Source of the DNA: Plasmodiophora brassicae
Taxonomy: Eukaryota
Assembly: GCA_036867785.1 (NCBI GenBank)
Contig: CP145411.1
Span: 62,001-126,000 of the forward strand
Length of the DNA stretch: 64,000 nucleotides
Direction of reading: 5' to 3'
The first letter of the stretch is position 1. Every line of letters starts with the position of its first letter. The position numbers were made by a program, and so were the translations under genes. Of the stretch, positions 10,763-48,608 are shown piece by piece. The notes under the pieces were generated by a model, which had not been told where the DNA came from, made no database searches, and saw nothing but the letters and a program-made list of their open reading frames with translations.

Positions 10763-12552
10763 GTCCATCTGATGCTGCCCGACCCTCTCACTACTAGGAA
10801 GTAAAAGCATACTGTACAACCGAGCCGCCGGTCGTACTCAGGGTGGTATCGTTCGCACGTTGGCAATGGCGGATCCAATCGACCTTCTGTCTCAGACGAT
10901 TGACGTCGCAGCATATATGACGGTCCCTCGCTGCTACTACAGTCTGGGGATACTGGGCATCGACGCTGTCTTGACTTGGGCGGCTGGGTACTGTCCCGGG
11001 TTGGACCAGACAGGCACAGACATTCGTCGGTACGGTCCACAGGGCCTCTCGTCAGCCAGTGAGCCACATCAAACAGCCGGCACGCCGTAACGACGAATCA
11101 AGGCATCTGATTAGGTGGCGTTACTGGGATGATTTGCGAGTTTCCCCATCGGGTACCGCATCCCATTGAGTGCCAATGACTCAGGTTGTGTCCTCGCGTC
11201 TACTGATCATCCACGAGTACGGCCCTATCGAACCTGCTATGTATTAAGTGGTTGCATGAGCCCGGGAGCGTCCTTGCCCAGCTGCTGGCGGAGGGCGTTC
11301 CTGCCCTCCCTAGTGTACGTTATCGGCGTGCATGGGGCGGTTACATTCCCAGGCGCGATTGATGGCCCGCTGCAAGGGGTGTCGATCTACTCCCCGCCCG
11401 AGACGTCCTTCATTGGGCCACAGCCGGACGACAGCTGGGTCACGTCGATAACCGGACCGATGGCTGTTGTCGATGGCGACCTATGCGAACCCCTGTCGCT
11501 GAACGCCAGTGGCCATGTCGTTCTGGCCACTGTCGACGCGGTGTACGCCGTCTACTGCTCAATGGAGACGGCGTATTTGAACATGATCGGGACGGGTGCG
11601 GCTGCCTACCTGTGTAAGGAGAGATGACTGCTGCTCGCCGGTCCATTGACGGTGCTGGTAGGGGCAAACCTTGAGCAGCCTCCATGCAATTCGGTCTACT
11701 GGCATGATGGGTGGCGGGGCGCCCGCACCCGTCACCTGGCGGTGCCGTTCCTGGCGATACAGCCGGCGCCGGAAGTCTACCAGGCAATGCTCGATCAACC
11801 GGCCCGTGTCAACGTCACTGTCTACCCAGACAGAAACGTGTGGGTCCCCTATCTGGCGTCGTGGCCCTACCAGCTGTTCGTCCGCGTCATCCCCAGCGCA
11901 ATACTGCTGGCCTCTGGGGCGGTCGCCACCTCGTTCTACATCTTCCATATGGTCATCCTGAACGACAAGTTCTGCGATACGACGATCGCCTCCAAGCGCA
12001 CGATAACGTGGCGCCTGAAGTTCGCCTGGCGGTACATGGACGTGCCACACGTGATCCTGGCGATTGAGATGGTCACAGCAACTCTAGCTGGAATTGTTCT
12101 TGCGGTCGGTGGGTACCATAGTACCGCGAACCTGCCAGCGCCCGTGACGAACTATTTCACGACGTTGCTAGGCGGATGGGGATTCGCCGCCTCCACACTT
12201 TCCGCATCGATCTGGGCCCAGAAGCTCAGCTTCATCATGCCCTCCGCCGACCAGATCCTCGTTGTACGTGTCATACGTGGCGACTACCGGCTGGTGACAG
12301 TGTCACTCTGCGTTATTCCCGTTATGCTCGACACGGCCATGAACCTATCGTTCGCGTCGTATTATTTCGCGCCGTCCATGGTCGCCGCCGAGTCTGCGAT
12401 CATGTTCACGTTTCAACTGGGTATAAGCACCTCCGTTCTTTGGACGCTCGTCCACTACCGCCGAACCGCCAATCGTATCCAGGTTGGGGTCGCCGGCACT
12501 GTCCGAGACGACGAACGTGGCGTGGATCGGCTGTTAGCCCCAAACTCCGTGG

Positions 12553-12622
12553 ATGACATACTATGTCATGCAGGGCTCGGGTGTCAGAAATAGCTTTTCC
12601 GTTGTATGACATAGTATGTCAT
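12553..12622. repeat. Left subterminal palindromic repeats ATGACATA(C/G)TATGTCAT x2
   Basis: Copies at 12553-12569 and 12606-12622. Confidence 0.9.
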
Positions 12623-13453
12623 GTATGGGGGTGATTTCCGGTGGCCTGTTGCAACGGCTAGACTGACAACTATGCTGTCTGAATCGGTTCGAATGGCGTA
12701 GTCCGCCGTGCGGCGTTACCTGCGGACTTTCGTCCGATTTGAAACCGAGTGGGTTCCATGGAGGAAGACCGCAAAGTGTGGGAGGCGGCTGTCCGCATGC
12801 TGCGGGCTGCATATGACGATGATCATGTCCGAGCACAGTGGTCTCAACCCGACGACGAGGTCAACGATGATGGGCAAACAATGTACGTAGGCTTTCCGGT
12901 ATGACTACGAGAGCAGCTGCTCTCGTGGCCGAGTTGGGCGGTCCGGTCTACATGATATATGATAACAGGGCCTATGAACACTTCTCGAGCGAAGCAAGTT
13001 TACAGTGTCGATGCATGGCTTCTTGCAAATGCGAGGCTCGTCGTACCTATTGTTTGCGACGACATCAAAATAGTCGTTGAACAAGACGTCCGCGACCAGT
13101 CTCATCATGGTGTCGGATGTTAGCAACCTGTGTCTACAGTACTCTTGTTTCTTTGATGTTCCGGTGCGTTGCCTTCTGACATCCTTGCAGGCCATTGTTT
13201 TCGCATCTGTCGACGGCTGTTAACAGCCAACGGGCTACCGCCCATTTGTCGCGCTTGAATCCCGATGCGATATGGGCGATGAGCCTCTACGCGACGACGC
13301 CGACTGATACCTTCGACCCTGAGTGGTCGGATTCGTATCCACTGGCGTTTGCCGTCGAGAAACAAGCATGGTGGGATGTACATCGAGCACTTCAGTGCTG
13401 TGTGCTGTCTTGGTAACCGTTCCTGGCGTTTTGCGTGAACACGTGAACATTAC

Positions 13454-14250
13454 TTGCTTGCTTGTCAGCGCATCGGGGACAAACATGCTGGACCTGCGCA
13501 GATCGACGCTTTACCCGTACCCACTCTGGAACACGCGGTTGATCACCACATTGTTAAGTTCTGGCGACAAATGAAGCAAGCGCTTCTTCAATGCCGAAGC
13601 CCACCTCCTGCCCACGAAATCGTCCCAGCCGCTGTCTGGTTCTGAAATCATGTGAAAGGCGGCCAGGACGTTGTCTCGAGAGAGAGAGATGAACAATGTT
13701 AAGGTATGCAAATACCGCGATGTATGAGATCCATTACTGAACAGTGGCACCAGGTCGATTTCCGGCGACCGTCCCAAGACGTTAAATTGGCAGCGGCTTT
13801 GTTTCGTGTGCATGCTAAATGCGCACGAGCTGTGGCGTCTGCAGCAGCTGCAATCCCGTATTGCCGATGTGTCCAGTTTCGACAAATGGAAACATTTGTT
13901 GAACGATGAGGGTCCTTCAAATATTTTCTTCGGCTGGCCTGCCTGAGTGCCTTCTGAATTGCAGCGTGCAGCAGAGGCAGCTGACAATCCAGTGCCGCTC
14001 CTCCAGCCACCTAAGCGGAATCGTCGGTTGTTCTTCCTGACTGAGGACGGTCGCGCGCTCCGTTTCAGACAGGGCATACGTTGTCCAGCGCTCTGGCAAT
14101 AAGGGGGATGTTTACTGGGTCAATATCGGGAACCGAATGGGACATGTCGACAATGCAGCACGACGGTGTGGTGCAGCATTTGCCAAGTGCCGTTATGCAA
14201 GACGAGATTCGGTTCAAATACGTTATCATGCTTCGACAGATTCCATGATC
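13454..14250 (+). pseudogene. Degenerate piggyBac-like transposase remnant
   Basis: PAAVWF*NHVKGGQDVVSR (~13625-13681) resembles the YNxxKGGVD catalytic motif; C-terminal Cys-rich CRQCSTTVWCSICQVPLCK..SCFDRFHD (14142-14249); interrupted by stops and frameshifts. Confidence 0.7.
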
Positions 14251-14581
14251 CCGGTGATGTCAACCTGTCTGTGCAGTTCCGCCCTGACAGTCGGACCGGG
14301 GAACGTGTATTCGACTTGGGCGTTCTGACGAACGATCGCCGTCCTCTCCTGAAGGTGGTTTGGACGCATTACTGCTTGCAAGTGGAGGACCTACAGTGCA
14401 GTCCATCGGCGGACGCCCATGACACGATGTGGCCACTTTACCCTCGGAAAACCCGGCAAGCAATCGCTCCGGACGCCGCTCGCGTGGACCAGTGACACGC
14501 TCGCAGTCCAGTCGATGATCGCATCCCCTTTGATCTTCTTGAGAATGCACCAGAGTATCAATACAGGCAAAAGTGTGTTGC

Positions 14582-14823
14582 ATGACATACTATGTCATGC
14601 TGCCTTTGCATGACATACTATGTCATATGCACCCAAAATAGAAGCATGGGAGAGCCTGATTTCGTGAGAGCACTGGAACGAAACACAACGTCGACAGGAG
14701 TCCGAACCTTCGGGGCGAGGTGGAGGCTGGCATGGACTATCCAGGATGGAAGCTACCATTCGCCTCCAAGGTCCTCATTTTTCGCTACGTCCTGCCAAAC
14801 ATGCATGTCATATTATATGACAT
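14582..14823. repeat. Right subterminal palindromic repeats ATGACATACTATGTCAT x2 plus an inverted-arm variant
   Basis: Copies at 14582-14598 and 14610-14626; ATGTCATATTATATGACAT at 14805-14823 next to the TIR. Confidence 0.9.
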
Positions 14824-15435
14824 AATCCACGGAGTTTGGGGTTAGCGCGACTGAGCAACTCCGTTCTTGGCGTGGCACTATCAACGCTCATGGTCTGCAT
14901 AGGCTCTGCCATATGGGGCGTAGAACCTGGCTTTGCCATGAATCCATCTTGGGGCTGGATCTTCTCCTGGGGGGTCATCTATATCGGACGCGCCCTCGAC
15001 AGCGCCTTCCGTGTGTCCATGTTCAAACCCAACCGGGAACCCCGTCCAGCACGGCAAGCACCGAAACCAACGAAAACAATCGGGATCGCTGGCAAACATT
15101 AAATACTGCATCCGTGAATACCACAGACAGTAGTGTGAGACCTCCGCGATCCAGGGAGCGGCAGCCCGCGTAGGCGCTCGTTGCCTCAGCTAAGGGTGAG
15201 TTAACAACATCAACCGTCTCAAGAGACGCCATCTACGAGACCAACTCGTCCCGCACTGCTCGAAACGTGCCGATTCTGGCGACGATAGTCGTTGCTGAGT
15301 GCGCGTCGTCGTTCGTGACTTAAGGCATTAGGTAGGTCCGCGACTCCGCGCGACGGACCTCGGAATGCGCGCGGCGGACCTCTACGGACTCCGCGAACGG
15401 GTCGCGCTGCTCGTGACAGACGCTGACACGACACC

Positions 15436-18421: not shown

Positions 18422-20079
18422 TTACAGATCGGGTCGAACGCTGGATAAAGGTCTCAACGCTCCCTCGTTGGCGTCCGCTTCAGCGGACGTCGGAAACGGC
18501 CGCTTGACGCCGGCCGTCGGGCGGCTGGCGCGGAACGATTCCAGCAGCCGATGTTGCTCGTCGACATCGACGGCCGCCAGGTCGAACTGGGCGGCGACAG
18601 CGACGAGCTCGGCCGACGACTGAACGGCGGGCATATCGCCAATTGACGATACCGTCGTTTCGGATACGTTCGCACAGAAGTAGGTCTCCAGGGTGCCCGC
18701 CGCCACACTACCCATGCCCGGCGAGAACCTTGCCGTTGTAGGGAACGTTGGCACCTGACGACACACGCGCGCACACACACGTTCATGACTGACACTCGCA
18801 GACACGTTCCGCTGAGCGTACCTGTCGTAGGCGCACGGGACGGTTCGAGGAGCCGCGTTTCCTGCCTTCGGGGGCCGGCGCCTTCTGGAAATACGACGAG
18901 ATCTTCGACTTGTCCTTCGAGGTGTCGCGAAGGTCGTTGAAGCAGTCCAGAATGCGCTTCCGGTCGGACGCAGCGTTGCGCGACGACGTCACCGTCGGGA
19001 TGATGTTCTTCGGGCTCAGGAACGCGACAAACGCCCGCAGCTCGTCGTAACTGCTGTGCTCAGAATACGGCGCCTAATCACAACAAGGCCAGGCTGAGAC
19101 AATGAGGGCGACAATCACACGGCACCAACATTAACAATGACGACGGAATCGTTCTGGGTGACCGTCACGTCGCGCTTGGCCGTATGGGTCCATCCTGTCG
19201 GTCGGACAGCCACCATGGTTGTAAATGACGCCGTCCGGGACAGCCGTTCCCGAGCACGGGGCAGGTTCTGCCAGGACAAGTCGTCCAGCGGGACGACGTG
19301 AACGCGACTCGCCCCGGTCGTGAACAACTCGTTGACGTCGTCGGCAGGCAGGGACATCATCAGGTCCTTGAACCTGGCGGAACTGACGCGAACCCTGCAC
19401 TGGAACTCGCGTGCCAACCGTACCAGAAGACGCTCCTTGCCGACCGAATACGTCCCGATGAGGAGCAGCGCGTCGCCCGACGCGTAGTACGGCCTGCAGA
19501 TGTCGACGACGCGGGCGATGATGACGTCCTGCGGCGGGAACCTGTACTTGGGGTCGCAGTACGTCGTATCCAGGTAGAGGTGGTCGATCTGGACCGGCGG
19601 CGCCAGGCTCGGGAACGATTGCATGCGCGCGTCATACCGCATGTCGCCGCAATGCAGAATCGACTCGCCGGAACGGTGCTGGAACAGGATCATGGCGCTA
19701 CCCGGGCAGTGGTTCGCATCCAGGAACGTCACGAGGACGTCATCGATGACCACGGCGCTGCCCAGGGCCACACTGCGAACGCATCGGGCCGGCACGCGTA
19801 ACTTCGCCTGCACCAGGCGGCTCGTGCAGGGCGTACAGTATATCAGACCGCCCGCGAACGACTTGTCCAGCCCGGCGTAGTGATCCGAATGGAAATGCGT
19901 CAGGAACCAGTGCGACGTTTCTGCGCGACGACGTCATCAGACACGCCGGCCGCGACGAAGGGGCGTCCCGGCGTACCTGCGCATCGTATCCTGAACCCGT
20001 CGACGAGGAACGTGCGCCCCGGGACCTTGTGCCGCTCAGGGACCAGGCGGTGCGGCAGCGTCCGGACCGACCCGAACAT
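18422..20079 (-). CDS. SNM1: SNM1/PSO2 (DCLRE1A-like) DNA crosslink repair nuclease, MBL-beta-CASP; several introns
   Basis: TFLVDGF, WFLTHFHSDHYAGL, DANHCPGS, LHCGDMR, LYLDTTYC, GTYSVGKE, PTGW, PYSEHSS. Confidence 0.92.
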
Positions 20080-20213
20080 CACGTGCGCCAATGAATCGAC
20101 TCTGGACTGATGATGCGGCGGCGGACCGCCCCCCGTCTCCCCTCCGCCCGCGCAGCTGCACAGCTGACGGACATTGTGCGGTCGGCAGTTCGTGTCGCGT
20201 GGCGGGGTTGACG

Positions 20214-45179: not shown

Positions 45180-48100
45180 ATGTCGTTGATCGTAGTGTAT
45201 ATGGCCCTTGTCGCCATCGTCGTCGGTCTGCCGGGGCGACCGGATATCGCCAGCCTGTCGCCAGCGCAGCTGAACGCGTATCGGGCCGCGTTCAGGACCG
45301 TCCAGGCGTCCAGCGACCACTGGGACACCTTTTCCAGACTGTACGCCAGCTGTGGGCCACTGCTGTCTGCCCCGACGCCCCTGGCCGTCGTCACGACCGT
45401 CTTACGCCATGTCGAGGGTCGCCTCGGCCAACCCATCCCGTACTGGGATTTCCCAGTCTCGCCTACCGTACCGGTGGCGTTCCTCGAAGCGACCGACAAC
45501 GAACCTGAACGCCTGCCGAATCCTTTGTACGGGAACTGCCAGCTGGCGGCCCACGAGATCGATTCCAGGACGTTGAAGGAGATCCAGGAGCGCGTCCACT
45601 TGTTGCCCCTGGTGTCGGAGCCCGGCGACCGCTTCGGATTACTGTTCGACGCCCTGAGCGCCGCCCAGGGATCGTTGGCCGGGTGCCTGACGTCGTTGGA
45701 GACGGCCGCCAGTCATCCATTGTGGTTCAGCATGCTCTCCTATGTTGTCACCATGCAGGAGACGTCGTGGGATGACGCCGAGCGCACGACCCAGTGCCCG
45801 GCCGAGCTCGTGGTCCCACCACCGTCCACCGCAACGATGCTGCCCGACACGCTTGTTCAGAATAATCTGGGCCAGGCGATACCGGCGGTCCAGCGTGACG
45901 CCCCTGCTTCGTCGAACACTGTGCAACTGTTCGTCCCAGGCGCCGATGGAACCATGCAGCCTGGGCCAGTGGTCACGAGGGCAACGCTGCGCGCCCTGGC
46001 CGATCTGCAGAAGGCGCCCGCCGGCGTGTCTGGCGCCGCCAACACGGGCCCTTCGCACGGTTCCCCAGTACCAGCAGGCGAGTCGCCGCCGAATACGGTC
46101 CAGTTGTTCCTCCCGGGCGCCGATGGCGACTTGCAACCGGGGCCTGTTGTAACGCAGGCCACGTTACGCGCCTTGACCGAGCTTCAGAGCGGTACCCGGA
46201 TTCCCGGCTTGGGTGGCCCCGTGCCAGGTGGCTCGCCTGGAGTCAGCAGGCCACCAAGTGCATCGACGAGCAATACCGGAGGTTCAGGAGCCGGCCCGGC
46301 GGGCAGTCAGCCGGATGGCGGATCCACCACGCCAACGTCACCGGGGGCACCAGACGACGAATCACCATTGTCTGGGGAGCTCCCGCCGGCCGACACCCGA
46401 TCTGGCTCGAACACGTTTCCGGGGCGCCCAATGTCGCCGCCTGAAACGGGCACCGGCAGCAATGTGTCACCCACGATCAGCGGGAAAGCGGCTGGGCTCC
46501 CGGGCACTGCATCTTCCAGCACCATGCCGGGTGGACGACCGGGCGGTCCGAATTCAGCAGGGCGTTCGACAATGGGCAGCGGGCGGCAACCGACCGGAAG
46601 CCATCTTTTTGAGGCACTGCCAGCGGGAGGCGAACCAGCTGCCGCTGATGCTCTCTTGTCAGACGACACGGTCCCGACATCAGGTATGCCGTCAACGCCA
46701 TCACAAGCGCCGCGCCAGCCGCGCCTTGGCCTGGCTGATTCAGGGCGTTCCCCTGGCGAGTCTCCAACGGGCCCACGACCACGGGCGCAGACTGGAACTG
46801 GAGAATCACCTTTGGAGACCGACGAATCACTACCGGGGTCCGATCAGGCATCTCCAGGTGCTGACCGGGCGGGCGGGTTTCCAAATGGGCAAGGTTCCCC
46901 TGCCGTGCCCGGCAACGCTACGCCTGACAGTGGCCGATCAGCGGTTAACTCGGTCTCGTCCCCCGCTGTCGACAAGGCTTCTCCAGCAGCGGGGCAGCGG
47001 ACAGCACAAGGAACGAAACCGCTGTCTGGAAGTGATTCCCCTGCGCGGGGCCGTTCGCAAGCATTGACGTCATCGGCACAGCGTCCGACGTCAGATTCGG
47101 CACCGTCGTCGGGTACTGGAAGCGCATCGACGGTCCCTAAGCCGAGGCCTGATGATGAATCTTCTCCAGTCCCCTCGCGTCGTTCATCGTCAGTCGGTTC
47201 GCCGTCTTCCGGATCGCCCGATTCGACAGCGGCTCCTGCACAAGGGCGCCCAACAGGGTCTGCTGGAGCGCGTGCGTCGCCAACGCCACCACCAGCGTCT
47301 GCTAGGTCATCTTCAGGAGTCGCCGACCAGAACGGCACTGGTGGGCGACCTACCGGTGACAATGGTGCGGGGGCGCCCAATGAATCGTCCCAAACATCGC
47401 AGACGATCGCCCCGCTGACGCCAATGCCGCCCAACACACCGCCACCGCTCCCCTTGCAATTGCTCGGCAGCGCACCTACCCCACAGCAACCACCTCAGAA
47501 GCAACAGACGCCTCAACAGCAACAGGCGCAACCGCAGCCCCCGTCTCCTCAGCAGCAACCGTCGCCTCAGCAGCCACCGTCTGGGCAGCCCAACAACCAG
47601 CAACAACCAAAGCAGGATGGTGCTCCGCAAGGCCAACAACAGCCTCAACAGGGCCAGAAGCAACAGCCTTCACAGCTGCCTCAACAATCTCCTCAGCAGC
47701 AAAAGTCCCAGCAGCAGCAGCAGCAGCAGCAGCAACCGCCGCAGCAACCTCAGCGACAACAGCAGGGGCAGCAGCAGCCGCCGCCACCACCACAGCAGGG
47801 GCAGCAACGCCAGCCACAACCCTCGCCGCAGTCCCCCCAAGTGATAACGCCACCTGGAGGATCATCGCCCCAGGTGATCACGCCGCCGGGCGGTTCCGGC
47901 CCGCAGATCATCACGCCTCCATCGCCGCCGATCATCATGCCCCCGTCACCGCCCAAGGTCGCCCCACCGTCCGCCATTGTCGGCCCGATCGCGCTACCGC
48001 CTCTGCCGGCCATGCCAGCGCCGAACGCGGCCGGCCCCATGATGTCGCCGCTACCGGGCAGCAATGCCGAGGTATCGCGTTCGAACAACGTCCAAGCGAC

Positions 48101-48608
48101 GCAGAACTCGGCACAGTCCATCTCGCAGCCGTCCCCGTTCTCGGTATCGTCGTCGGCCAGCGCCTCGCAGTCCATGTCGGCCGGCAGCAGCGACATGATG
48201 ATGCAGGAGCAGCCGATGATGATGCACGACCCGATGATGATGATGCATCACCCGATGATGGTCCTGGAAGACGCGTCCAGCACCGCTGACGTCGCCGCTG
48301 GATCTCGCCTGATCCTGCACCTGTTCCTGCCCGCTCTGGCAACGAAGGCAACCGTCATCAGCGTCGTCGCCAACATGCGCCAGATCGGCCACGTCTTCAT
48401 CGTTGGCGGACCCGGCAGTGACATCGGCCTGCCGACTGGCCTGAACCTGCACCGCATGCTGGACGTGACGCGCGCCTACAACGCGTTCCTGAATAGGGAC
48501 GACGCGCAGCCCATCCAGCTGGCATTCACGACAACGGCGCTGGACAACCCTGACAGGCCTCAAGCCTACCAGGTATCCGCCTATTTCGAATGGGTCTGTA
48601 CACAGTGA
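45180..48608 (+). CDS. Secreted/anchored tyrosinase-fold-like protein lacking Cu ligands, with a very long P/S/G/Q-rich insert
   Basis: Hydrophobic N-terminus; RPDIASLSPAQL..YRAAF, IPYWDF, PNPLY, AASHPLWF; C-terminal IGHVFIVGG..MLDVT; start uncertain (ORF open from 45108). Confidence 0.6.
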   Translation: MSLIVVYMALVAIVVGLPGRPDIASLSPAQLNAYRAAFRTVQASSDHWDTFSRLYASCGPLLSAPTPLAVVTTVLRHVEGRLGQPIPYWDFPVSPTVPVAFLEATDNEPERLPNPLYGNCQLAAHEIDSRTLKEIQERVHLLPLVSEPGDRFGLLFDALSAAQGSLAGCLTSLETAASHPLWFSMLSYVVTMQETSWDDAERTTQCPAELVVPPPSTATMLPDTLVQNNLGQAIPAVQRDAPASSNTVQLFVPGADGTMQPGPVVTRATLRALADLQKAPAGVSGAANTGPSHGSPVPAGESPPNTVQLFLPGADGDLQPGPVVTQATLRALTELQSGTRIPGLGGPVPGGSPGVSRPPSASTSNTGGSGAGPAGSQPDGGSTTPTSPGAPDDESPLSGELPPADTRSGSNTFPGRPMSPPETGTGSNVSPTISGKAAGLPGTASSSTMPGGRPGGPNSAGRSTMGSGRQPTGSHLFEALPAGGEPAAADALLSDDTVPTSGMPSTPSQAPRQPRLGLADSGRSPGESPTGPRPRAQTGTGESPLETDESLPGSDQASPGADRAGGFPNGQGSPAVPGNATPDSGRSAVNSVSSPAVDKASPAAGQRTAQGTKPLSGSDSPARGRSQALTSSAQRPTSDSAPSSGTGSASTVPKPRPDDESSPVPSRRSSSVGSPSSGSPDSTAAPAQGRPTGSAGARASPTPPPASARSSSGVADQNGTGGRPTGDNGAGAPNESSQTSQTIAPLTPMPPNTPPPLPLQLLGSAPTPQQPPQKQQTPQQQQAQPQPPSPQQQPSPQQPPSGQPNNQQQPKQDGAPQGQQQPQQGQKQQPSQLPQQSPQQQKSQQQQQQQQQPPQQPQRQQQGQQQPPPPPQQGQQRQPQPSPQSPQVITPPGGSSPQVITPPGGSGPQIITPPSPPIIMPPSPPKVAPPSAIVGPIALPPLPAMPAPNAAGPMMSPLPGSNAEVSRSNNVQATQNSAQSISQPSPFSVSSSASASQSMSAGSSDMMMQEQPMMMHDPMMMMHHPMMVLEDASSTADVAAGSRLILHLFLPALATKATVISVVANMRQIGHVFIVGGPGSDIGLPTGLNLHRMLDVTRAYNAFLNRDDAQPIQLAFTTTALDNPDRPQAYQVSAYFEWVCTQ

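Follow-up and report, generated by a model that had tools for sequence, protein, structure and literature searches.

A non-autonomous transposon, probably of a very divergent piggyBac-like lineage, interrupts a coding exon of Plasmodiophora brassicae at TTAG

We analysed a 64,000-nucleotide stretch of the genome of Plasmodiophora brassicae (GenBank assembly GCA_036867785.1, contig CP145411.1, positions 62,001 to 126,000 of the forward strand), referred to here as the window and numbered from its first letter. An element of 2304 bp at 12538–14841, with TTAG on both sides, is probably a copy, non-autonomous and with an internal deletion, of a cut-and-paste transposon whose transposase belongs to a very divergent piggyBac-like lineage. 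The element inserted at TTAG within a coding exon, duplicating the TTAG, and is present in some isolates and exactly absent from another.

Results

The element has perfect inverted ends and an exact empty site

The element begins with a 17-bp terminal inverted repeat, CCCCAAACTCCGTGGAT, on the forward strand at 12538–12554, and closes with its exact reverse complement at 14825–14841, on the reverse strand. When the window was searched for this 17-mer with up to three mismatches, these two places were the only matches, against a chance expectation of 0.15; one of 100 shuffled sequences likewise gave two. Directly outside the repeats lie the two copies of the target site, TTAG at 12534–12537 on the left and TTAG at 14842–14845 on the right. 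Both features had been claimed in a first-pass annotation made from the letters of the window, which described perfect 17-bp repeats of the CCCC/GGGG type within a TTAG direct repeat, and the sequence and the 17-mer search bear this out. In length and in their CCCC…GGGG termini the repeats agree with what two surveys give for piggyBac elements, namely repeats of about 12–19 bp that start with CCC and end with GGG (PMC10813416, PMC5381638). The element is poorer in GC than its surroundings (about 0.54–0.56 vs about 0.60–0.65). Decay of the repeat-induced point mutation type was considered and rejected, as the TA/AT ratio is 0.51 in the element and 0.52 in the window.

At least half of the sampled words of the stretch searched are contained in each of 20 public sequencing runs from seven studies, none of them listed as RNA. 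We compared contigs from four runs, here called X1 and X15 (DNA) and X14 and X19 (from two studies, both guessed to be RNA). This revealed an empty site in X15, where a contig of 15,031 nt joins 12532 to 14841, skipping 2308 nt with six ambiguous letters, and retains a single GTTAGC. One other letter differs on each side of the joint, which indicates that the contig comes from another strain. Because this empty allele keeps one GTTAGC, TTAG itself was the target and did not arise from TTAA by mutation; the exact empty allele fits the state before insertion and a precise excision alike. In X1, by comparison with the window, contigs run from each flank into the element (12300–12567 and 14631–15100).

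To locate the insertion in its host gene, an intact tandem paralog (P0037, 383 aa; 9611–10759 on the forward strand, 100% identity by tblastn) served as a ruler. Its residues 7–303 align on 11649–12536 and its residues 303–367 on 14842–15036 (tblastn), and in an alignment of the host gene (A5) the two halves meet exactly, with no residue missing or repeated between them, so that the insertion splits a coding exon. By alignment with the paralog, the upstream part of this exon lies at 11628–12537 on the forward strand and belongs to a member of a P. brassicae gene family that encodes multi-pass membrane proteins, and the downstream part, at 14845–15102 on the same strand, is in frame with it once 2308 bp are removed. 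The relatives of the host frame are membrane proteins of P. brassicae, one of them named ‘TRP C-terminal domain-containing protein’ by NCBI. The two tandem paralogs, at 9611–10759 and 11628–15102, are 64% identical and belong to a family with no confident Pfam domain; the downstream one is the interrupted gene.

Related copies exist elsewhere in the genome. In both DNA runs the depth of contigs is 214–308 in the element vs 64–73 in its flanks, and X15 contains variant contigs of the element with substitutions and small indels. Since these indels fall exactly where the window copy changes frame, the X15 strain probably holds less damaged copies. An exact 23-mer of the left end had no match in metagenome contigs, and a blastn comparison of the element with plasmids gave none either.

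The window copy carries a broken transposase gene

To search for relatives of the encoded protein, the longest broken frame (13728–14495) was read through, with X at its three stops, and subjected to an exhaustive HMMER search, which returned 24 proteins at E ≤ 0.001. Clusters of these matches include full-length forms of 991–1008 aa, namely P0028, P0029 and P0030, the last a P. brassicae ‘SAP domain-containing protein’. Two short predicted proteins among the matches, P0002 and P0026, both named by their source as Plasmodiophora brassicae, are identical to the window translation. The GC content, the introns of roughly 50 nt and the association of the runs with plants agree with this organism. 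When P0029 was compared with the element by tblastn (combined E 3e-31), the solid blocks covered its residues 123–168, 707–788 and 801–996 only. All three lie on the forward strand. The first is an N-terminal helical remnant at 13267–13404 (41% identity, E 6e-9), the second a remnant at 13442–13684 that includes the motif NHVKGGQD (49% identity), and the third, at 13773–14303, comprises a C-terminal helical region and the remnant of a Cys-rich zinc domain. The codons for NHVKGGQD (13646–13669) and the Cys-rich block (about 14145–14246) both match conserved blocks of real proteins. The transposase remnant of the first-pass annotation, recognised there by this motif and a Cys-rich C-terminus, is therefore confirmed by the 24 relatives and by the match to P0029. 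A word-based protein search with the read-through C-terminus found no match at near lengths, and one with P0029 returned its own cluster only.

Between the first two blocks, at 13405–13441 on the forward strand, the tblastn coordinates and a protein alignment (A1) place the junction of an internal deletion. About 540 codons are gone here, equivalent to P0029 residues ~169–706. In the relatives, this is where the SAP domain, a middle domain of uncharacterised nature and two of the three conserved Asp blocks, the first and the second, are found. In addition, an in-frame TGA at 13643–13645 aligns with an invariant Trp of the relatives, further in-frame stops stand at 13944–13946 and 14100–14102, and the conserved blocks within 13646–13850 are distributed over three frames, implying at least two frameshifts. 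No intact transposase reading frame was present, the longest frame of the spliced RNA being 130 aa. With some 540 codons lost, three in-frame stops and these frameshifts, the copy is unable to encode a transposase or to move itself, and it is a non-autonomous internal-deletion derivative. Like other such derivatives of DNA transposons, it keeps both ends while the middle of the transposase is gone; unlike them, this copy is still transcribed and spliced.

Ends, palindromes and protein relatives point to a piggyBac-like lineage

Three conserved Asp-containing blocks are found in all relatives that cover them, of which the window copy retains the third only, and the Cys and His columns of the zinc domain are nearly invariant among the relatives. 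NHVKGGQD is a candidate for the block of the third catalytic Asp. Its surroundings, as well as the blocks before the first Asp, may resemble blocks of piggyBac.

The protein was also compared by embedding and structure searches. In ESM-Atlas, the nearest clusters to P0029 residues 100–470 carry PF13843 (DDE_Tnp_1_7), and those nearest to residues 730–1005 carry both PF13843 and PF13842, with 174–187 shared features for the latter region and scores of 0.83–0.84, a level that the tool rates as leads only. Weak profile matches point the same way, PF13842 matching two of the 20 relatives compared (the better one at E 0.024, which misses the cut-off) and PF01609 matching P0028 (E 0.047). For the structural comparison we used an AlphaFold model of P0005, which represents the C-terminal third; it was built with 22 sequences and has a mean predicted local distance difference test (pLDDT) value of 65.8, with residues 220–310 above 90, the zinc domain being in this well-predicted part. 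When this model was compared with 350,542 PDB chains by Foldseek, the piggyBat transposase 9c0f took ranks 1 and 2 (E 0.54, probability 0.89), with nothing at E 0.001. A second look at 105 chains with VIA-align again put 9c0f first (Z 6.8, 124 aligned residues, root-mean-square deviation (r.m.s.d.) 13.2; next chain Z 4.7), as did an independent VIA search of 48,161 representative chains (Z 6.3, 128 aligned, r.m.s.d. 17.9; next Z 5.3). The match is colinear: model residues 104–301, which start just past GGQD and run to the C-terminus, lie on chain residues 416–572, and a simple offset puts the Asp of GGQD (P0005 residue 101) on D413 of piggyBat. This residue is the third catalytic Asp of piggyBat (PMC11707139).

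The DNA of the element also carries palindromes inside its ends. Four 17-bp palindromes of the form ATGACATA[C/G]TATGTCAT begin at 12553, 12606, 14582 and 14610, for a chance expectation of 0.01. Two of them make up the left subterminal region (12553–12622, with palindromes at 12553–12569 and 12606–12622) and two the right (14582–14626, with palindromes at 14582–14598 and 14610–14626). A census of half-sites added a degenerate fifth palindrome at 14805–14823, which has the half-sites in opposite order and adjoins the right end. All five TGACATA words of the window fall within the element. In piggyBac and piggyBat, dimers of the Cys-rich domain bind such subterminal palindromes; by analogy, the left palindromes may be where the corresponding domain of the transposase binds.

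The element shares with piggyBac of Trichoplusia ni and piggyBat of Myotis lucifugus short inverted ends of the CCC…GGG type, a duplication that is probably of 4 bp (here one letter off TTAA), exact presence or absence with the target restored, and palindromic subterminal repeats near both ends whose arrangement differs between the two sides. At the protein level, the relatives resemble these transposases in having three Asp blocks, probably equivalent to the catalytic ones, followed by a helical region and, at the C-terminus, a putative zinc domain rich in Cys. There are also differences. The ends of the element start with CCCCA and its target is TTAG; its full-length relatives have about 1000 aa, whereas the piggyBac and piggyBat transposases have 572–594; and between the second and third Asp blocks the relatives carry an insert of ~450 residues with a SAP domain, in contrast to the insertion domain of ~60 residues in piggyBac. 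Moreover, the gene of the element has introns, and the window copy is without the catalytic core. Most likely, the element works like piggyBac and belongs to a deep piggyBac-like branch.

The target site and the profile searches are in part at odds with this placement

A number of findings weigh against a piggyBac-like origin, and the first concern the target. The duplication is TTAG and not the TTAA that defines the superfamily, and the only copy whose empty site was verified went into TTAG. In addition, two X15 contigs leave the right end immediately after 14841, entering flanks whose consensus starts with ATAA (agreement 0.68, among the loose ends listed). As flanks beginning with TTA would have extended the match to 14844, this is a hint that other copies do not sit at TTAx. 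It is conceivable, if unlikely, that the family has a shifted or relaxed target choice, as the first-pass annotation inferred; the target would then be TTAG, xTAx or any 4-mer in place of TTAA with rare slips. The X1 contig that enters from the left flank and stops at 12567 would be expected in this case, if other copies differ before 12538 and if the Logan word size is 31, as we take it to be. Furthermore, the transposase is far from canonical piggyBac, which makes a different target pocket plausible.

Set against this, the target was read from one copy only, the other copies being seen solely as consensus loose ends; the ATAA flank is a two-contig consensus at an agreement that rearranged or related ends could also give; and a different letter before 12538 in other copies suits TTAA equally. 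TTAG is also within the repertoire of canonical piggyBac. In HEK-293 (human) cells, 23026 of 23417 insertions were at TTAA, 110 at CTAA and 100 at TTAG, according to Table 1 of a published study (PMC3499496). CTAA and TTAG are one site on opposite strands, together accounting for 210 of the 23417, and are the commonest off-targets of canonical piggyBac, so that one insertion at TTAG is ordinary. Among natural elements, a survey of animal piggyBac elements gives TTAG as one of the rare duplications (PMC10813416), and another survey, of 157 elements, records duplications other than TTAA as rare events in single copies (PMC5381638). The element is like these rare insertions in using TTAG, although those are minor events of elements that prefer TTAA.

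The second group of adverse findings concerns family membership. The first-pass annotation had proposed a HMMER comparison with DDE_Tnp_1_7. When membership was tested as Pfam defines the piggyBac family, PF13843 matched none of ten stop-to-stop open reading frames of the window copy (which had no relevant Pfam match), none of three full-length relatives at E ≤ 5, and none of 20 relatives at E ≤ 10. Profiles of five and of 20 relatives, run against PDB sequences at E ≤ 10, likewise found no piggyBac chain and returned only SAP domains and zinc ribbons of the ribosomal eS27 type. The structural Z of 6.3–6.8 is under the level of 8 at which the tool is trusted and may reflect a common arrangement, and the r.m.s.d. 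is large. The full-length AlphaFold model (pLDDT 39.5) was unusable and the structural comparison covers the C-terminal third only; the catalytic core that carries the first and second Asp blocks is absent from the window copy.

On these grounds, and in view of the odd architecture of the ~1000-aa relatives with their SAP domain and long insert, one could regard the element as a separate superfamily, new or at any rate not piggyBac, whose resemblance is due to convergence or very deep ancestry. We consider this improbable. Two parts of the protein are each nearest to piggyBac families in ESM-Atlas; a piggyBac-family chain is the best among 48,161, and its match follows the protein colinearly from the block of the third Asp as far as the C-terminus; the weak PF13842 and PF01609 matches fall on the same side; and the ends, the length of the duplication and the palindromes are all consistent with piggyBac. 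The label ‘piggyBac-like’ given by the first-pass annotation is supported by evidence of a remote kind, namely the ends, the TTAx duplication of probably 4 bp, the palindromes, the Atlas neighbours and the first rank of piggyBat, but finds no backing in PF13843 or in the profiles against PDB sequences.

A similar name is already in use for repeats of this species. A 2025 preprint on P. brassicae genomes reports ‘DNA/PiggyBac-X’ repeats from RepeatModeler near effector genes (10.1101/2025.07.30.667784). These come from the same species and were given a piggyBac-like label by an automatic classifier, and the comparison with the element is by label only. These repeats may or may not be the family described here, and the label ‘PiggyBac-X’ was not found elsewhere in the literature searched.

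The duplication is probably four letters long

The letters common to both junctions number six, G-TTAG-C, as G12533, which precedes the left TTAG, recurs on the right as 14841, and C14846, which follows the right TTAG, equals the first C of the left end. This gives two symmetric readings: a 4-bp duplication with 17-bp CCCC…GGGG ends, or a 6-bp duplication (GTTAGC) with 16-bp CCC…GGG ends. The first-pass annotation had mentioned 5-bp GTTAG as its one alternative and overlooked the symmetric 6-bp reading.

The duplication at the empty site is accordingly 4 to 6 letters long, with indirect evidence from contigs favouring four. In X15, two other right ends match the element through G14841 before their flanks diverge, suggesting that the fourth G is part of the element; the odds of such agreement by chance are about 1 in 16. 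On the left, the X1 contig from the flank stops 30 letters into the element, at 12567; with the word size assumed above, this would mark the start of the repeat at 12538 and not at 12539. Despite the symmetry of the six shared letters, we therefore regard it as very improbable that the element makes 6-bp staggered cuts and has ends of 16 bp. Shorter duplications were rejected. With 3 bp (TTA or TAG) or 2 bp (TA) the terminal bases of the two ends become unequal, and the protein evidence points elsewhere; duplications of these lengths are found in other transposon superfamilies. An insertion at TTAA followed by mutation of each flank to TTAG, or an assembly artefact, has a negligible probability, given that the empty allele of the other strain reads GTTAGC with its single TTAG, which excludes a mutated target, that X1 contigs cross both flanks into the element, and that 20 runs share words with the stretch searched as described above.

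Transcription, splicing and polyadenylation of the element

Contigs of X14 and X19 cover a transcribed span at 12741–14615 on the forward strand (5′ limit about 12741–12779), and a poly(A) run and sequencing adapter stand directly after 14615. Three introns with GT..AG borders were identified on this strand from spliced joints in the contigs of both runs: intron 1 at 13139–13190 (52 nt), intron 2 at 13413–13468 (56 nt) and intron 3 at 13704–13753 (50 nt). The joints were seen in neither DNA run. Intron 2 may be new or cryptic, since it overlaps with the junction of the deletion and takes out codons in which the match to the relatives persists. In the case of intron 3, the spliced RNA has one frame in which a block conserved among the relatives reads through the third exon junction, indicating that this intron is probably original to the transposase gene.

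A short dispersed repeat appears to be nested in the element

A 46-bp segment at 12907–12952 has a depth 50–150 times that of the flanks or single-copy sequence in both DNA runs, and numerous loose ends of different kinds adjoin it on either side. These features suggest that the segment is a short repeat, highly dispersed and nested in the element, which contains a GAGAGCAGCTGCTCTC hairpin. One X15 contig skips a stretch of 93 bp at 12905–12997. No second copy of the 46-bp segment was found in the window, it had no match in Rfam or among tRNAs, and Rfam and tRNA scans of the element as a whole were also negative.

Discussion

In light of these data, we can propose how the element may have reached its present site. 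A full-length relative, supplied in trans, would have bound the ends of the element, its Cys-rich domain probably contacting the subterminal palindromes as in piggyBac and piggyBat. The transposase would then have cut by DDD chemistry and joined the ends to a staggered cut of 4 bp at TTAG. Most simply, TTAG would be the usual minor off-target of an enzyme that prefers TTAA. A more far-reaching view would see here a deep piggyBac-like branch of plasmodiophorids and unidentified protists that carries an insertion domain of ~450 residues with a SAP domain and a further domain, has freed its targeting from TTAA, with TTAG used here and flanks at other copies that begin with a letter other than T, and was recently active in disrupting genes between isolates; taken as a whole, we think this rather unlikely.

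piggyBac owes its special place, in mechanism and as a tool, to its targeting of TTAA and its seamless excision. To find another target rule in a natural lineage would be informative if true, but no such rule is established by the window. The data do establish that P. brassicae, whose compact genome has yielded few descriptions of such elements, harbours a family of DNA transposons that was mobile recently, and that this family yields an exon-disrupting insertion polymorphism between isolates of the clubroot pathogen. As the standard Pfam model does not recognise the transposase family, annotation pipelines may overlook it or give it a wrong label. A 2026 preprint on the P. brassicae pangenome gives transposable elements as 11–14% of each genome and, in its accessible part, does not name this family. 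Our literature search found no description of the element, its ends or its target, in texts that did not extend to the supplementary tables of the surveys and preprints, which may list the family.

The transposase family is also found outside P. brassicae. A metagenome scan identified six loci with relatives at 30–33% identity, in AT-rich organisms (GC 0.36–0.48). One of these AT-rich loci, L002 (positions 1–1533 of a metagenome contig), likewise has an internal deletion, which joins the first Asp block directly to the middle domain, implying that deletion derivatives recur in this family. When L002 was compared with a second locus, L003, the two diverged after a shared 3′ stretch, and no matching 5′ end was found. 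Another metagenomic protein, P0003 (365 aa), consists of three tandem ‘PKRNR...Cys-rich’ C-terminal modules of the family without the core, and may represent a domesticated or decayed DNA-binding array.

In the full-length P0029, as in P0028 and P0030, residues ~430–700 contain the SAP domain followed by ~170 residues with conserved blocks. These blocks may resemble the pattern of a nuclease of the PD-(D/E)xK or YqaJ type, a likeness that no Pfam or PDB sequence match supports.

Elsewhere in the window there are three very long intron-free frames of 1075–1593 aa, at 2483–7264 on the reverse strand and at 19995–23222 and 45081–48608 on the forward strand, which match no Pfam family at E ≤ 0.001.

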